39,816 nucleotides of DNA from the sequence record NC_011040.1. The stretch is one strand, 5' to 3'. Below are positions 195 to 39,816 of this stretch, piece after piece (position 1 is the first letter of the stretch; each line of letters opens with the position of its first letter). The translations under genes and the position numbers were made by a program. The DNA comes from Escherichia phage BA14. A model generated the notes under the pieces. That model made no database searches, had not been told where the DNA came from, and worked only from the letters and a program-made list of their open reading frames with translations.

Positions 195-205
195 ATCTGT
201 AATTA

Positions 206-2985: not shown

Positions 2986-5637
2986 ATGACTAACGTAATC
3001 AACGCACCAAAGAATGACTTCTCTGACATCGCTAATGCAATCCAGCCGTACAACATTCTGGCTGACCATTACGGTGCACAGCTTGCAGCTACGCAGCTTG
3101 AGTTGGAGCATGAAGCTCACACTGAGGGCGAGAAGCGTTTCCTTAAGGCGATGGAACGTCAAATCAAAGCGGGTGAGTTCGGTGATAACGCAGTGGCTAA
3201 ACCGCTCCTGTCATCCCTCGCACCAAAGTTCATCGAAGCGTGGAACACTTGGTTCACTGAAGTTGAAGCGAAGCGTGGCAAGCGTCCAGTGGCCTACAAT
3301 CTGGTACAGAAGGTTGCACCCGAAGCGGCTGCTTTCATCACACTTAAGGTCACACTCGCTTGCTTGACGAAAGAAGAGTTCACCAACCTGCAATCAGTCG
3401 CTACTAAGATTGGTCGTAGCATTGAAGATGAACTGCGTTTCGGTCGCATCCGTGACGAAGAAGCGAAGCACTTTAAGAACCACGTACAGGAGGCACTGAA
3501 CAAGCGCGTTGGTATCGTCTACAAGAAAGCATTCATGCAAGCCGTAGAAGGCAAGATGTTAGACGCTGGTCAACTGCAAACCAAGTGGACTACATGGACA
3601 CCTGAAGAATCAATTCACGTTGGTGTGCGCATGTTGGAACTGCTCATCGGGTCTACTGGTCTCGTTGAGTTACACCGACCGTTTGCTGGTAACGTTGAGA
3701 AGGATGGCGAGTACATTCAACTGACCGAACAATACGTTGACCTGTTATCTAAGCGTGCTGGTGCACTGGCTGCAATTGCTCCGATGTACCAACCATGTGT
3801 AGTTCCTCCGAAGCCTTGGACGAGTCCGGTCGGTGGTGGCTATTGGGCTGCTGGTCGCAAGCCTCTCTCTCTGGTTCGCACTGGTAGCAAGAAGGGACTT
3901 GAGCGTTACAACGATGTGTATATGCCTGAAGTTTACAAGGCGGTGAACATCGCACAGAATACTCCTTGGAAGATTAACAAGAAGGTTCTGGCAGTGGTCA
4001 ACGAGATTGTGAACTGGAAGCATTGCCCGGTTGACGATGTACCTGCTCTCGAACGTGGTGAACTGCCTATCAAACCTGAAGACATCGACACGAACGAAGC
4101 GGCTCTGAAAGCGTGGAAGAAAGCGGCCTCCGCAATCTATCGCAAAGAGAAAGCACGAGTTTCTCGCCGCATGAGCATGGAGTTCATGTTAGGTCAGGCC
4201 AATAAGTTCGCACAGTTCAAAGCTATCTGGTTCCCGATGAATATGGACTGGCGCGGTCGAGTGTATGCGGTCCCAATGTTTAACCCGCAAGGCAACGACA
4301 TGACCAAAGGCTTGCTGACGCTCGCTAAAGGTAAACCAATCGGTGTCGATGGGTACTACTGGCTGAAGATTCACGGTGCTAACACTGCTGGTGTGGACAA
4401 GGTGGACTTCGCTGAACGTATCAAGTTCATTGATGATAACCATGAGAACATCATGAGCGTTGCGGCTGACCCTATCGCTAACACTTGGTGGGCTGAACAA
4501 GATTCTCCGTTCTGCTTCCTCGCATTCTGCTTTGAGTATGCAGGAGTCCAGCACCACGGGATGAAATACAACTGCTCTCTTCCGCTGGCGTTTGATGGTA
4601 GCTGCTCCGGTATTCAGCACTTCTCCGCAATGCTTCGTGATGAAATTGGTGGTCGCGCTGTTAACTTACTGCCGAGCAAGGAAGTCCAAGACATCTACCG
4701 CATCGTAGCGGAACGTGTCAACGAGATTCTGAAGCAAGATGTAATCAATGGCACCGACAACGAAGTCGAAATCGTGACCAATAAGGACACTGGCGAAATC
4801 ACTGAGAAGCTCAAGCTGGGAACTAAGGAACTGGCTGGTCAATGGTTAGCATACGGTGTTACTCGTAAGGTGACTAAGCGTTCCGTTATGACCTTGGCGT
4901 ATGGTTCCAAAGAGTACGGCTTCCGTGACCAAGTGCTAGAGGATACCATTCAGCCAGCTATCGACGATGGCAAGGGCTTGATGTTCACTCAACCGAACCA
5001 AGCGGCTGGCTACATGGCTAAACTGATTTGGAACGCAGTAACGGTGACAGTGGTCGCAGCGGTTGAAGCAATGAACTGGCTGAAGTCTGCGGCTAAACTT
5101 CTGGCTGCTGAAGTAAAGGACAAGAAGACCAAAGAGGTTCTCCGTAAGCGCTGTGCGGTACATTGGGTTACTCCTGATGGCTTCCCGGTCTGGCAGGAAT
5201 ACAAGAAGCCAGTACAGACCCGCTTGAACCTGATGTTCTTAGGCCAGATTCGTCTACAGCCTACCGTGAACACCAACAAGGATAGCGGAATTGACGCACG
5301 TAAGCAGGAGTCAGGCATTGCACCTAACTTTGTCCACTCAATGGATGGTAGCCACCTCCGCATGACCGTGGTGCGCTCCTATGAGGTCTACGGTGTGGAA
5401 TCGTTCGCACTGATTCACGACTCCTTTGGTACTATCCCTGCTGATGCTGGCAACCTGTTCAAAGCAGTGCGTGAAACGATGGTCAACACTTACGAAGAGA
5501 ACGATGTACTTGCAGACTTCTATGAGCAATTTGCTGACCAGTTGCACGAATCACAGCTTGACAAGATGCCTGAGATGCCAGCTAAAGGTTCTCTGGACCT
5601 GCAAGAAATCCTGAAGTCAGACTTTGCGTTTGCCTAA
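2986..5637 (+). CDS. 1: Single-subunit DNA-directed RNA polymerase (gp1)
   Basis: 883 aa, near-collinear with T7 RNAP as I recall it (e.g. AIWFPMNMDWRGRVYAV, FDGSCSGIQHFSAML, specificity-loop region QPTVNTNKDSGIDARKQESG, C-terminal FAFA). Confidence 0.98.
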   Translation: MTNVINAPKNDFSDIANAIQPYNILADHYGAQLAATQLELEHEAHTEGEKRFLKAMERQIKAGEFGDNAVAKPLLSSLAPKFIEAWNTWFTEVEAKRGKRPVAYNLVQKVAPEAAAFITLKVTLACLTKEEFTNLQSVATKIGRSIEDELRFGRIRDEEAKHFKNHVQEALNKRVGIVYKKAFMQAVEGKMLDAGQLQTKWTTWTPEESIHVGVRMLELLIGSTGLVELHRPFAGNVEKDGEYIQLTEQYVDLLSKRAGALAAIAPMYQPCVVPPKPWTSPVGGGYWAAGRKPLSLVRTGSKKGLERYNDVYMPEVYKAVNIAQNTPWKINKKVLAVVNEIVNWKHCPVDDVPALERGELPIKPEDIDTNEAALKAWKKAASAIYRKEKARVSRRMSMEFMLGQANKFAQFKAIWFPMNMDWRGRVYAVPMFNPQGNDMTKGLLTLAKGKPIGVDGYYWLKIHGANTAGVDKVDFAERIKFIDDNHENIMSVAADPIANTWWAEQDSPFCFLAFCFEYAGVQHHGMKYNCSLPLAFDGSCSGIQHFSAMLRDEIGGRAVNLLPSKEVQDIYRIVAERVNEILKQDVINGTDNEVEIVTNKDTGEITEKLKLGTKELAGQWLAYGVTRKVTKRSVMTLAYGSKEYGFRDQVLEDTIQPAIDDGKGLMFTQPNQAAGYMAKLIWNAVTVTVVAAVEAMNWLKSAAKLLAAEVKDKKTKEVLRKRCAVHWVTPDGFPVWQEYKKPVQTRLNLMFLGQIRLQPTVNTNKDSGIDARKQESGIAPNFVHSMDGSHLRMTVVRSYEVYGVESFALIHDSFGTIPADAGNLFKAVRETMVNTYEENDVLADFYEQFADQLHESQLDKMPEMPAKGSLDLQEILKSDFAFA

Positions 5638-23119: not shown

Positions 23120-23160
23120 AACCCCTTGGGTGCCTTCGCGGGTGCTTGAGGGGTTTTTTC
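23120..23160 (+). terminator. Intrinsic terminator after the capsid gene (Tphi position)
   Basis: AACCCCTTGGG...CTTGAGGGGTTTTTTC, GC-rich hairpin plus U-run, near-identical in form to T7 Tphi. Confidence 0.8.
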
Positions 23161-33626: not shown

Positions 33627-35594
33627 ATGGCTAATAAAATTTCCACTGTACGTACTTACCCGCTGAACGGTGCCGTGAACTTCACGATTACCTTTGAGTA
33701 TTTAGCACGTAAGTTCGTCCAAGTGACACTCATCGGGAAAGACCGTAAAGAGTTGGTTCTCAATCAGGACTATCGCTTTACCACTAAGACCCAAATCACA
33801 ACCTCCCGTACATGGACTGCCGCTGATGGTTATCAGATGATTGAGATTCGTCGATTCACATCTGCAACCGACCGTCTGGTTGACTTTGCTGATGGCTCAA
33901 TCCTTCGTGCGTATGACCTTAACATCTCACAGATTCAGACGCTGCACGTAGCTGAAGAGGCACGAGACCTAACTGCGGATACCATTGGTGTCAACAATGA
34001 TGGTCACTTGGATGCCCGTGGTCGTAAGATTGTGAACCTAGCGTTCGCCACCAGTGACTATGATGCTGTCCCACTGAAGCAAGTAAAAGAGCGCGAGTCG
34101 TCTGCTTGGAACGCTGTTAACAAGGCCAATGAACATGCTAACCGCTCTAACACTGAGGCTAACCGCTCGCGAGATGAAGCTGACCGTGCAAAACGTGAAG
34201 CTGACCGCTCAACCCAACAGGCAGGTGTCTCTACGGCACAGGCAGTTGAGTCCAAGAAGCAAGCTGACCGTTCCAACTCTGAGGCTAACCGAGCTAAAGG
34301 TTATGCTGATAGTATGACCGCAAGTGTCGCTGAGGCCAAGAAGCAAGCTGACCGTTCCAACTCTGAGGCCAATCGTGCCCGTGATGAGGCCAATCGTGCT
34401 GCCGGAGAAGTGACTAAGGCTGCTGCTGAGGTTGCCAAAGCTGCTGCACACGTTGCTACCGCTAAAGGTCATGCTGACCGCGCCAACACTGAGGCTAACC
34501 GTTCCAAAGGTGAGGCTGACCGTGCTAAGGCCGAGGCCGATAAGTTGGGCAACATGAATGGCCTAGCTGAGACAGTTGAGAAGGTTGATGCTCCAGATGT
34601 CTACTTCAAGCGTAATGTGATTGCTGGCCACCGTCTGGAGACTAAGGGTGGTTCCCATCTACACCCTAACGAGTTGAAATTGGTGAACACTAAGTCTCCT
34701 GACCAGCACTTTATCGTACAAGCATGGGGCACTGGTGACCCAAACAATAGGGCACAGGTGTTTGAACTTAGGGATAACTTAGGTCCATATGCGTTTTACA
34801 TTCAGCGAATGAAGAAGACTGACCAAACGTGGCAAATGAGTGTGAATGGCACTGTTAGCTGTGTATCCGTTGAGGCTGGTAAGGGGTTCATCTCTAAGGA
34901 CAGTACAGGCTCTATTCAAATGAAAACGTGGGGTGGCAGTTGGAACCAGTGGACATCAAATGCTGTTCCAGACATTCAGCATGACATCGAAGCCCAACAT
35001 GATGCGGCTTATCTGCTGGAGAGGGCAACCATTTGGGGCAAAGAGCACCTGTATGCTAAGTGCTTATACAACAATGGCGGTGGCGCTAACTTCTTTATCA
35101 GACATTATCTCCGTGGGACTTACTTCGACTTCAGGAGTGATGGTACTCTTAGTGGCTCGACTGGTTGGTATATCCCGCCAGATGGCAACCTGTACATCAA
35201 GAAATATGGACTGTATATTGATACGTGGGTTAACAATCGCTTGGGCGAACACGCCTACAATAAGGGCGAAGTCAACAACTTGGTCAATGGTCGTCTTACC
35301 GCTGGTCAAGGTGATGGTCGATATGTCCGCAAGAACGCTGGGTGGGCTGAGGTCTGGAAAGGCTCTGCTGGTGGTGGTGTCTCCGTAGGTCTCTCACAGG
35401 ATGTCCGATGGAGAACTATCTGGATTCAAACTCAAGGACGCTGGAACCCGGTTCAGATTGGCGATAACGGGCCATACTACATCTCTTCTATGGGTGGGTG
35501 GCTACAGTTTACAATCTCCAACAACGGGAGAACTTTCCGAAATGATGCTGACCGTAGTTCTGTACCTACGAGAATCTTAGTTCAAAACCAATAA
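33627..35594 (+). CDS. 17: Tail fiber protein (gp17)
   Basis: 655 aa; N-terminal ~150 aa and C-terminal ~90 aa match T7 gp17; central coiled-coil region is repeat-expanded. Confidence 0.95.
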   Translation: MANKISTVRTYPLNGAVNFTITFEYLARKFVQVTLIGKDRKELVLNQDYRFTTKTQITTSRTWTAADGYQMIEIRRFTSATDRLVDFADGSILRAYDLNISQIQTLHVAEEARDLTADTIGVNNDGHLDARGRKIVNLAFATSDYDAVPLKQVKERESSAWNAVNKANEHANRSNTEANRSRDEADRAKREADRSTQQAGVSTAQAVESKKQADRSNSEANRAKGYADSMTASVAEAKKQADRSNSEANRARDEANRAAGEVTKAAAEVAKAAAHVATAKGHADRANTEANRSKGEADRAKAEADKLGNMNGLAETVEKVDAPDVYFKRNVIAGHRLETKGGSHLHPNELKLVNTKSPDQHFIVQAWGTGDPNNRAQVFELRDNLGPYAFYIQRMKKTDQTWQMSVNGTVSCVSVEAGKGFISKDSTGSIQMKTWGGSWNQWTSNAVPDIQHDIEAQHDAAYLLERATIWGKEHLYAKCLYNNGGGANFFIRHYLRGTYFDFRSDGTLSGSTGWYIPPDGNLYIKKYGLYIDTWVNNRLGEHAYNKGEVNNLVNGRLTAGQGDGRYVRKNAGWAEVWKGSAGGGVSVGLSQDVRWRTIWIQTQGRWNPVQIGDNGPYYISSMGGWLQFTISNNGRTFRNDADRSSVPTRILVQNQ

Positions 35595-35642: not shown

Positions 35643-35849
35643 ATGTTGTCTTTAGATTTTAACAACGAGGTAGTGAAGGCTGCTCCGATTGTAGGGACAG
35701 GTGTAGCCGATGGTGCTGCCCGTCTATTCTTCGGACTGTCCCTTAACGAGTGGTTCTATGTAGCCGCAATTGCCTACACAGTGGCTCAAATTGGTGCCAA
35801 GGTAGTCGATGTGATTATCAAATGGAAGAAGGAGGGTAAAGATGTCTAA
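35643..35849 (+). CDS. 17.5: Holin (gp17.5)
   Basis: 68 aa from ATG 35643 (RBS AAGGAGG); MLSLDFNNE..AAPIVGTGVAD...LNEWFYVAAIAYTV near-identical to T7 gp17.5. Confidence 0.9.
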   Translation: MLSLDFNNEVVKAAPIVGTGVADGAARLFFGLSLNEWFYVAAIAYTVAQIGAKVVDVIIKWKKEGKDV

Positions 35850-36111
35850 CGATAAATCTTTGATTCAATTCCTTGAGATGCTGGACACTGAGATGGCTCA
35901 ACGTATGCTTGCTGACTTGCAGAATGATGAACGCCGAACACCTCAACTGTACAACGCAATAGGGAAACTGTTAGAGCGCCACAAGTTCCAAGTCTCCAAG
36001 TTACAGCCAGACCGTAACATCCTTGGTGGACTTGCTGATGGCCTAGAAGAGTACCAGAACTTGGTAGGCTCCGATGGTCTGACTGAAGACGAGAAGTACA
36101 CGCTGAACTGA
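35842..36111 (+). CDS. 18: Terminase small subunit (gp18)
   Basis: 89-aa ORF overlapping the holin end, RBS GGAGGG; size and position of T7 gp18. Confidence 0.8.
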   Translation: MSNDKSLIQFLEMLDTEMAQRMLADLQNDERRTPQLYNAIGKLLERHKFQVSKLQPDRNILGGLADGLEEYQNLVGSDGLTEDEKYTLN

Positions 36112-37227: not shown

Positions 37228-38985
37228 ATGTCTACTCAAGCAAACAAGAATGCGCTCATCGTGGCGCAACTTAAGGGTGACTTCGTGGCCTTCCTGTTCG
37301 TCTTATGGAAGGCTCTGAACTTACCTAAACCAACCAAGTGTCAGATTGATATGGCACGTACACTCGCTAACGGCGACCACAAGAAGTTTATCCTTCAGGC
37401 GTTCCGTGGTATCGGCAAGTCCTTTATCACCTGTGCGTTCGTTGTGTGGGTCTTATGGCGTGACCCTCAACTTAAGGTGCTCATTGTGTCTGCCTCTAAG
37501 GAACGTGCGGACGCTAACTCCATCTTCATTAAGAACATCATTGACCTGCTGCCATTCCTCGCTGAGTTGAAACCTCGACCGGGACAGCGTGACTCTGTGA
37601 TTAGCTTCGACGTTGGCTTGGCGAAACCCGACCACTCACCTTCTGTGAAGTCTGTGGGTATCACTGGTCAGTTGACTGGTAGTCGTGCTGACATCATTAT
37701 CGCAGATGACGTTGAGGTTCCCGGCAACAGTTCTACAAGCTCTGCTCGTGAGAAGCTGTGGACACTGGTAACTGAGTTTGCTGCGTTACTTAAGCCGTTA
37801 CCTACCTCTCGCGTTATCTACCTTGGGACACCTCAAACCGAGATGACTCTCTATAAGGAACTTGAGGATAACAAAGGGTACAGCACAGTAATCTGGCCAG
37901 CACAGTATCCACGCAATGACGCTGAGGCTCTCTACTATGGCGACCGACTGGCTCCTATGCTTAAGCAAGAGTATGATGAAGGCTACGAGATTCTTCGTGG
38001 ACAACCTACTGACCCTATTCGATTCGATATGGATGACCTCCGTGAACGTGAACTCGAATATGGCAAAGCTGGCTACACTCTTCAGTTCATGCTCAACCCT
38101 AACCTGTCCGATGCTGAGAAGTACCCGCTGAGGCTCCGTGATGCCATTGTGTGCGCAGTGGACACTGAACGTGCCCCATTGTCCTACCAGTGGTTGCCGA
38201 ACCGTCAGAACCGCAATGAGGAACTTCCTAACGTGGGTCTGAAGGGTGACGACATTCACAGCTTCCATGTGTGTTCCTCTAAGACCGCTGAGTACCAGCA
38301 AAAGATTCTCGTCATTGACCCCTCTGGTCGTGGTAAGGATGAAACGGGTTACGCAGTCCTCTACACCCTGAATGGCTACATCTACTTGATGGAAGTCGGT
38401 GGGTTCCGTGGTGGCTACGATGACCCTACCCTAGAGAAGCTCGCTAAGAAGGCCAAGCAGTGGAAGGTACAGACGGTCGTACACGAGAGTAACTTCGGTG
38501 ATGGTATGTTCGGTAAGGTATTCTCTCCGGTTCTCCTGAAGCACCACAAGTGTGCCTTAGAAGAGATTCGTGCTCGTGGCATGAAGGAGATGCGTATCTG
38601 CGACACTATCGAACCGTTGATGGGCGCACACCGCCTTATCATCCGTGACGAAGTAATCCGTGAGGACTACCAGACCGCTCGTGACCTTGATGGGAAACAT
38701 GATGTTCGCTATAGTGCGTTCTATCAGATGACCCGTATGACTCGTGAGAAGGGCGCTGTGGCACACGATGACCGACTTGATGCTATCGCATTGGGTATCG
38801 AGTTCCTTCGTGAAGGGATGCAGGTGGACTCTAAGGTGGGCGAGGAAGCTATGACACTTGAGTTCCTTGAACACCACATGGAGAAACCTATCATCGGTGG
38901 TGACATGGCTCGTGAGTTAGTGTCTGGAGGTGTGGACATCTACTATGAGGACGATGGCGATGGAGAGTGCTTCATTGAGTGGTAA
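37228..38985 (+). CDS. 19: Terminase large subunit (gp19)
   Basis: 585 aa, RBS TAGGAGG; Walker A-like FRGIGKS and extensive collinearity with T7 gp19. Confidence 0.97.
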
Positions 38986-39072: not shown

Positions 39073-39095
39073 TAATACGACTCACTATTGGGAAG
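39073..39095 (+). promoter_or_regulatory. Phage RNAP promoter TAATACGACTCACTATTGGGAAG (phiOR-like)
   Basis: T7-family promoter downstream of gene 19, oriented toward the right end. Confidence 0.85.
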
Positions 39096-39251: not shown

Positions 39252-39407
39252 ATGCGCTTACTATCCGTGCTCAAGACACTGGCAACGCATCGAGTGACCT
39301 ACAAATTTCTCGTTGTACTTGCTGCTTCCATTGGTCTCGCATCTAGTGCTGAACACATCGGTGAACTGGAGACTCTGCTTTGTTCTCTACTCACTTGTGT
39401 TTCTTAG
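39252..39407 (+). CDS. 19.5: gp19.5 small protein
   Basis: 51-aa ORF with RBS AAGGAGG; HRVTYKFLVVL resembles T7 gp19.5 as I recall it. Confidence 0.7.
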   Translation: MRLLSVLKTLATHRVTYKFLVVLAASIGLASSAEHIGELETLLCSLLTCVS

Positions 39408-39575
39408 GCTACTCATTGGCGCTTAGTGCGCTCTTAGTGATTATGGTCGATATACATCTTCCCTATAATCACTGTAAGAAGTCAACTCTAAGAGTATCCC
39501 TTATGTACCCTCTATGGTCTACAGGGTCTCTTAGGGTCTCACCTTATGATAGAGCCTCTGTGGTTAACCTTATGA
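39405..39575. repeat. Array of CTCTTAG/CCTTATG heptamer repeats just inside the right terminal repeat
   Basis: CTCTTAG/CTCTAAG and CCTTATG copies at roughly 39430, 39487, 39499, 39528, 39542 and 39568, mirroring the left-end array. Confidence 0.6.
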
Positions 39576-39622
39576 GACTTGATGTACCCTTTAAGAATCC
39601 TACAGAAAAATCTGAGTGGGTA

Positions 39623-39816
39623 TCTCATAGTTCATACAAAGTGTTTACCCCCTATGGCCTCCTTCAGTTCCCCAAAGAGTGCCACCCCTTATGGTAACTT
39701 ATGGTTTACTTAATGTCAATCATTATGTGAGACATTGGGTGAATCATTGGGATGACCACTAGATATAGTGTGTGGGAGACCTTATGACCACTATATGTAG
39801 TCCTCTCTGTGTCCCT
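39623..39816. repeat. Right direct terminal repeat (exact copy of 1-194)
   Basis: Identical to bases 1-194. Confidence 0.95.

Follow-up and report, generated by a model that had tools for sequence, protein, structure and literature searches.

A probable class II pause signal for phage RNA polymerase at the terminal-repeat boundary of Escherichia phage BA14

Introduction

Class II signals for T7 RNA polymerase are read in the non-template strand as ATCTGTT preceded by a non-G base, and according to He et al. (1998), as cited, the core must directly follow A, C or T. The enzyme stops 6-8 nt after ATCTGTT (9 nt in one 3'-RACE experiment), and efficient release requires a downstream U-run. Secondary sources describe the 7-mer as 'strictly conserved', with any base change abolishing termination. 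The concatemer junction (CJ) of T7 is the natural example of the class and acts as a pause site that helps to initiate DNA packaging, and both the literature and established T7 knowledge hold that T7 lysozyme binds the polymerase and lengthens the pause. In the T7 genome the 160-bp terminal repeat is followed by ATCTGTTACAG, with ATCTGTT starting at position 161. A single copy of the repeat is believed to separate neighbouring genomes in T7 concatemers, and the natural consensus of the signal, as Zhang and Studier are said to have formulated it in 2004, is (C/T)ATCTGT(T/A).

The GenBank record of Klebsiella phage K11 (NC_011043, 180-188) labels nine bases, TATCTGTTG, as 'concatemeric junction'; neither the paper on the Kvp1 genome nor the one on przondovirus terminal repeats discusses the junction motif. 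Class II signals are also represented by artificial terminators in the human PTH gene and in VSV cDNA, which are accidental sequences without a biological role. Here we analysed the corresponding boundary in Escherichia phage BA14, where a first-pass annotation made from the letters of the DNA had proposed a CJ-like pause or termination motif.

Results

The motif lies directly on the terminal-repeat boundary

The window, that is, the whole stretch of 39,816 nt that was analysed, is a complete T7-like genome. The features that define the boundary are the following:

1-194: left direct terminal repeat, an exact 194-nt copy of 39623-39816
39623-39816: right direct terminal repeat, an exact 194-bp match to 1-194
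180-194: conserved block CTCTCTGTGTCCCT that closes the repeat on the right; its last T precedes the mature right end of the genome
194-201, + strand: class II-type core recognition sequence TATCTGTA, in the non-template strand; CT/ATCTGT is invariant in the reference genomes
207-210, + strand: predicted RNA 3' end at the pause, from the stop distances of T7 polymerase

The first-pass annotation had placed ATCTGT directly at the repeat boundary and had likened it to a class II signal containing ATCTGTT in the T7 concatemer junction. The position was confirmed, since the repeat spans 1-194 and the motif starts at 195 on the + strand, which is the placement of the CJ subtype, and the literature agrees on the T7 signal itself at position 161. 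The likeness holds for the hexamer and stops at position 7, which that annotation did not discuss and which is A in BA14 instead of T. The first unique bases after the left repeat are ATCTGTAA (195-202) and the + strand from 195 onward reads ATCTGTAATTACC; ATCTGTA thus occupies 195-201, and T194 provides the required non-G base before the core. Under the strict definition of the class, exact ATCTGTT, the site is a 6/7 match, and a search of the + strand of the window for the canonical 7-mer found no copy.

The closest described counterpart is the T7 CJ (nt 161-167). The two boundaries, ...TCTCTGTGTCCCT|ATCTGTT in T7 and ...TCTCTGTGTCCCT|ATCTGTA in BA14, share the 14 nt before the boundary (TCTCTGTGTCCCT, with T at -1) and the first six bases after it, which in both phages are the first bases after the repeat and lie on the same strand relative to all phage transcription. 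They differ at position 7 (T in T7, A in BA14), and 3' of the motif the sequence is AATTACCTTATG in BA14 versus ACAGTCTCCTAAAG in T7. Both lack a downstream U-run, have a phiOR-type promoter upstream and belong to phages with homologous polymerase, lysozyme and terminase. Since no U-run follows the BA14 motif, a pause would be expected there and not efficient release, as at the T7 CJ.

The artificial terminators of the PTH gene and VSV cDNA share with BA14 the ATCTGT core in the non-template strand and the non-G base before it, but they combine ATCTGTT with a U-run that drives RNA release, whereas BA14 has neither, its core being followed directly by AATTACCTTATG. Class I terminators of the T-phi type, represented in BA14 at 23133-23152, likewise act on the elongating phage RNA polymerase, but they consist of an RNA hairpin plus a U-run, while the junction signal has no hairpin and would act through sequence alone.

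The end of the motif overlaps a perfect palindrome of 8 bp, GTAATTAC (199-206). We considered this palindrome as part of the element and dropped it; it is probably incidental, because neither FE44 nor Kvp1 has a conserved copy.

The junction motif is conserved across T7-like phages

We compared ten reference Autographiviridae genomes from two subfamilies, anchored on the hexamer ATCTGT. The boundary reads CT|ATCTGT in 10/10 of them, and the start of the hexamer coincides with the repeat boundary, as deposited or annotated, or lies within 1-4 nt of it in T7, T3, K11, FE44, Kvp1, PcCB251, K1F, gh-1 and SP6. In the phage collection, the best-matching records were those of Erwinia phage FE44 (94%) and Kluyvera phage Kvp1 (89%), which both belong to Berlinvirus. 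Position 7 is T in T7, T3, K11 and SP6 and A in BA14, FE44, Kvp1, PcCB251, K1F and gh-1. The A form is a frequent natural variant: Berlinvirus, Kayfunavirus and Ghunavirus, and so at least three genera, have it fixed, and it is present in further T7-like contigs. The natural junction consensus derived from this survey is TATCTGT followed by T or A, to which TATCTGTA of the window conforms. The 'concatemeric junction' of K11 is this same element at the equivalent position, where TATCTGT spans the repeat boundary, and differs from BA14 in having T at position 7.

On the repeat side, TGTGTCCCT stands directly 5' of ATCTGT in T7, T3, K11, FE44 and Kvp1, and is partial in PcCB251, K1F and gh-1. SP6, from the other subfamily, does not have it; this phage shares only CT|ATCTGTT, and the remainder of its repeat end is unrelated. 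Because SP6 lacks the repeat-side block, ATCTGTW is conserved as a separate unit.

A scan of IMG/VR with the 15-mer TGTGTCCCTATCTGT returned at least 120 loci, whose T7-like status was set by protein or end homology. Among the matches listed, the base after the 15-mer in the 66 T7-like loci is T in 52 and A in 14 and never C or G, while in unrelated contexts all four bases come next. The first-pass annotation had named the equivalent position in close relatives as the place to look, and there the motif is present, in 10/10 references and in the 66 T7-like contigs listed.

Several further occurrences were recorded during this survey. Of the 120 listed matches, 54 to TGTGTCCCTATCTGT (e.g. L013-L015, L038-L043) lie in viral contigs without detectable T7-like similarity, and in one group of non-T7-like contigs of about 39 kb the 15-mer is found just upstream of an opposite-strand ORF. 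In gh-1 (L126, 205-228) the junction motif occurs as a tandem duplicate, CCCTATCTGTC|CCTATCTGTAAG; the annotated end of the repeat lies between the two copies, the first of which has C at position 7. A second TATCTGTAG, missing from T3 itself, is found in two T3-like contigs (L005, position 4207; L023, position 176) about 140-150 nt past the junction motif and shortly before the phiOL promoter.

Phage transcription would reach the motif in concatemers

The window contains 13 T7-type phage promoters (ACTCACTAWTGNGA), every one on the + strand. The promoters and genes that bear on the junction are the following:

353-375, + strand: phiOL-like phage promoter, the first phage promoter of the genome, downstream of the motif
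2986-5637, + strand: gene 1, single-subunit RNA polymerase, 883 aa, an exact match to BA14 gp1 and 76% identical to the T7 enzyme over 882 aa
10281-10736, + strand: gene 3.5 lysozyme homologue, 67% identical to T7 gp3.5
35842-36111, + strand: gene 18, small terminase subunit, 73% identical to T7 gp18
37228-38985, + strand: gene 19, large terminase subunit, 585 aa, an exact match to BA14 gp19 and 81% identical to T7 gp19
39073-39095, + strand: phiOR-like phage promoter TAATACGACTCACTATTGGGAAG, one of the 13 promoter matches, with +1 at 39090

The phiOR start lies 727 nt from the right end and, in a concatemer, from 195. We searched for a hairpin terminator between the phiOR-like promoter and the junction and found none; the only convincing class I terminator of the late region is the one at 23133-23152, after gene 10. 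The expectation of the first-pass annotation that transcripts from the promoter at 39073 would cross the repeat and meet the motif therefore agrees with the arrangement of the genome, in which promoter and motif share a strand with no intervening terminator. Since the first phage promoter lies at 353-375, the phage polymerase can meet position 195 only in a concatemer and not in a single linear genome.

In T7 polymerase, alteration of the residues around 172-179 (R173) abolishes class II recognition. The BA14 enzyme keeps this N-terminal region, with the LNKRVG segment and K172/R173 retained, and S43 is replaced by A.

In vitro data suggest partial activity of the A form

A 2026 preprint gives, for T7 polymerase reactions, the termination strength of each 6-mer; the data come from pooled 6-mers with the T7 enzyme and score termination, not pausing. 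In this table ATCTGT has a termination strength of 8.24, with the fitted stop 12.8 nt from the 6-mer start. The 6-mers that start at the third base of the motif, and so include position 7, are listed below with the stop distance from the 6-mer start:

CTGTTT: strength 2.56, stop at about 10-11 nt
CTGTTA: strength 1.75 (1.75-1.87), stop at about 10-11 nt
CTGTTG: strength 0.73, stop at about 10-11 nt
CTGTTC: strength 0.63, stop at about 10-11 nt
CTGTAA: strength 0.46 (second batch 0.49), stop at 11.3 nt
CTGTAT: strength 0.15, stop at 10.9 nt
CTGTC*, CTGTG*: no signal at that distance

The scores of CTGTAA and CTGTTA at the same distance, taken from these pooled termination data, suggest that, even with the T7 enzyme, ATCTGTAA is about a quarter as active as ATCTGTTA. 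The two forms of position 7 might be non-equivalent, the A form giving an intrinsically weaker pause with a greater dependence on lysozyme or on lineage-specific changes in the polymerase, and repeated switching between T and A across the Autographiviridae might tune the coupling of packaging to late transcription; we regard this extension as doubtful.

Outside the junction, ATCTGTW is avoided on the transcribed strand

The hexamer is not enriched in the window, where ATCTGT has 19 matches on both strands compared with 25.9 expected from shuffles, and the case for the motif stands on position and conservation, not on frequency. An Rfam search of the whole window gave no match. Only two copies are on the + strand (195 and 12393), against 17 on the opposite strand. 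We rejected this scarcity as evidence by itself: a maximal-order Markov model predicts 3.7 copies on the + strand, about 80 other hexamers show a strand skew equal to or above that of ATCTGT, and the low count is due to coding-strand composition, all genes pointing one way.

The base that follows the hexamer was more informative. We pooled 70 T7-like sequences totalling 649 kb (the window, L001-L003 and the IMG/VR loci within L004-L123), counted distinct contexts outside the junction, and used BTCTGT on the same strand as the control for the base that follows ATCTGT:

ATCTGTN, + strand: T 0, A 3, C 5, G 15
BTCTGTN, + strand (control): T 53, A 55, C 39, G 113
ATCTGTN, opposite strand: T 40, A 22, C 15, G 38

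On the + strand, T or A follows BTCTGT in 41.5% of contexts in the 70 pooled sequences. Since these sequences are related, the p-values are only indicative: W versus S after + strand ATCTGT gives Fisher p=0.007 against the + strand control and p=0.0004 against the opposite strand, and on the opposite strand the comparison with its own control gives p=0.23, with no such effect; taken singly, the avoidance has p=0.011 for ATCTGTT and is not significant for ATCTGTA (3/23 vs 21%, p=0.43). In the four full genomes, all other + strand copies of ATCTGT are followed by C or G (12393 in the window, 2072 and 5219 in T7, 12410 in Kvp1). This strand-limited bias looks like selection against internal class II signals, and the avoidance of ATCTGTW elsewhere only on the transcribed strand points to an effect on transcription.

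Other features in and near the terminal repeats

The 17 nt immediately before the right repeat (39606-39622), AAAAATCTGAGTGGGTA, are nearly identical in T7 (AAAAATCTGAGTGACTA) and contain another ATCTG; they are not common to K1F or SP6. This element may be part of a packaging or left-end cutting signal.

Within the repeat there are two near-palindromic 13-mers, ACTAGATATAGTG and CACTATATGTAGT, at 136-148 and 167-179 (also 39758-39770 and 39789-39801), which are 92% complementary and 18 nt apart. In Berlinvirus and Przondovirus the second copy, ACTATATGT, precedes the repeat end by about 16-24 nt; T7 and T3 lack it. Heptamers CCTTATG cluster in and around the repeat (65, 158, 206, 243, 255 and 271; 39499, 39542 and 39568), in a manner that resembles the CCTAAAG arrays of T7. 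The first heptamer after the motif starts at 206, where the pause is predicted, and the relatives examined have a similar short repeat after ATCTGTW, past a short variable spacer.

The repeat also contains a leftward sigma-70-like promoter (97-69, - strand; also 39719-39691) with TTGACA, a 17-nt spacer and TACCAT (10/12 matches), which is reminiscent of A0, the leftward promoter in the annotations of T7 and T3. An ORF of 105 aa with a TTG start (39380-39697) reaches 75 nt into the right repeat, and its counterpart in the FE44 record is annotated as similar to a BA14 'unknown product'. Farther away, within the tail-fibre gene (33627-35594), the stretch 34125-34528 holds degenerate direct repeats rich in GCTGACCG/GCTAACCG, in five 68-nt copies whose start-to-start spacings are all multiples of 21 nt.

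Discussion

Taken by its sequence and its setting, TATCTGTA (194-201) is probably the BA14 orthologue of the T7 CJ class II signal, a sequence-specific and orientation-dependent pause site for the phage's own polymerase. The interpretation offered by the first-pass annotation is supported in this form, and pausing by the BA14 polymerase is predicted. The element is of a known kind, ordinary for its phage family, in a published phage.

By analogy with T7 we propose the following sequence of events. In replicating concatemers, position 39816 would be joined directly to 195, and polymerases starting at phiOR (39073-39095), or at late promoters located past the gene-10 terminator, would travel rightward across the single repeat. 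On reading TATCTGTA in the non-template strand they would pause about 6-9 nt farther on, which places the RNA 3' end near 207-210, and with no U-run after the motif they would be expected to pause rather than release efficiently, as at the T7 CJ. The gp3.5 lysozyme, bound to the polymerase, would lengthen this pause, and the paused complex over the boundary between repeat and unique sequence could serve as a landmark at which the prohead-terminase complex (gp18/gp19) starts maturation and packaging.

The main rival to this reading is that the block is mainly a DNA-level terminase signal for the right-end cut CCCT/ATCTGT and that pausing in BA14 is weak or irrelevant, which we consider unlikely. 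The cut falls exactly inside the conserved block, and conservation of a block that spans the cut fits this possibility equally well; moreover, about 14 nt of the repeat (TCTCTGTGTCCCT) share in this conservation, which in most Studiervirinae also includes the upstream ACTATATGT, and position 7 departs from the canonical polymerase signal. SP6, however, has CT|ATCTGTT alone and none of the repeat-side block, the avoidance of ATCTGTW is limited to the transcribed strand, and work on T7 ascribes the pausing to ATCTGTT. A terminase signal is compatible with a pause signal at the same place, and as a replacement for it is weakened by SP6 and by the strand-specific avoidance.

We find it very unlikely that the site is an inactive relic in which the change from T to A at position 7 destroyed the class II signal while the rest was kept by descent. 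This is what would follow from the reviews that call the 7-mer strictly conserved and state that any base change abolishes termination, but the A form is fixed in at least three genera, C and G are found in none of the 66 T7-like loci listed, and a decaying site would not remain limited to T and A; in addition, with T7 polymerase CTGTAA still yields a positioned termination signal. We find it highly improbable, more so than a relic, that the site is a cryptic host sigma-70 extended -10 promoter. In E. coli, Bao and Forster reported promoter activity of the TGnTA type for the T7 CJ, but this activity requires TGnTA, and BA14 has TGTAATTAC, where the change from T to A removes the -12 T; K11 (TGTTGG) and SP6 (TGTTCG) also lack TGnTA, and a promoter scan of the + strand at the site found nothing. 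We therefore rejected this reading, the TGnTA motif being missing from the BA14 site. Finally, although ATCTGT is a common hexamer (19 copies against 25.9 expected), its presence beside the repeat by chance deserves practically no credence and is refuted by conservation, since the same position is filled in 10/10 references and in the 66 T7-like contigs listed.

For sequences used in RNA synthesis with T7-type polymerases, the natural T/A polymorphism and the in vitro 6-mer data agree, and for this reason ATCTGTA, besides ATCTGTT, may give some premature stops. For BA14, the pause site that we propose marks the right edge of the concatemer junction and matters little beyond correct annotation. 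For the family, it backs the view that a transcription-coupled start of packaging is common to T7-like phages.
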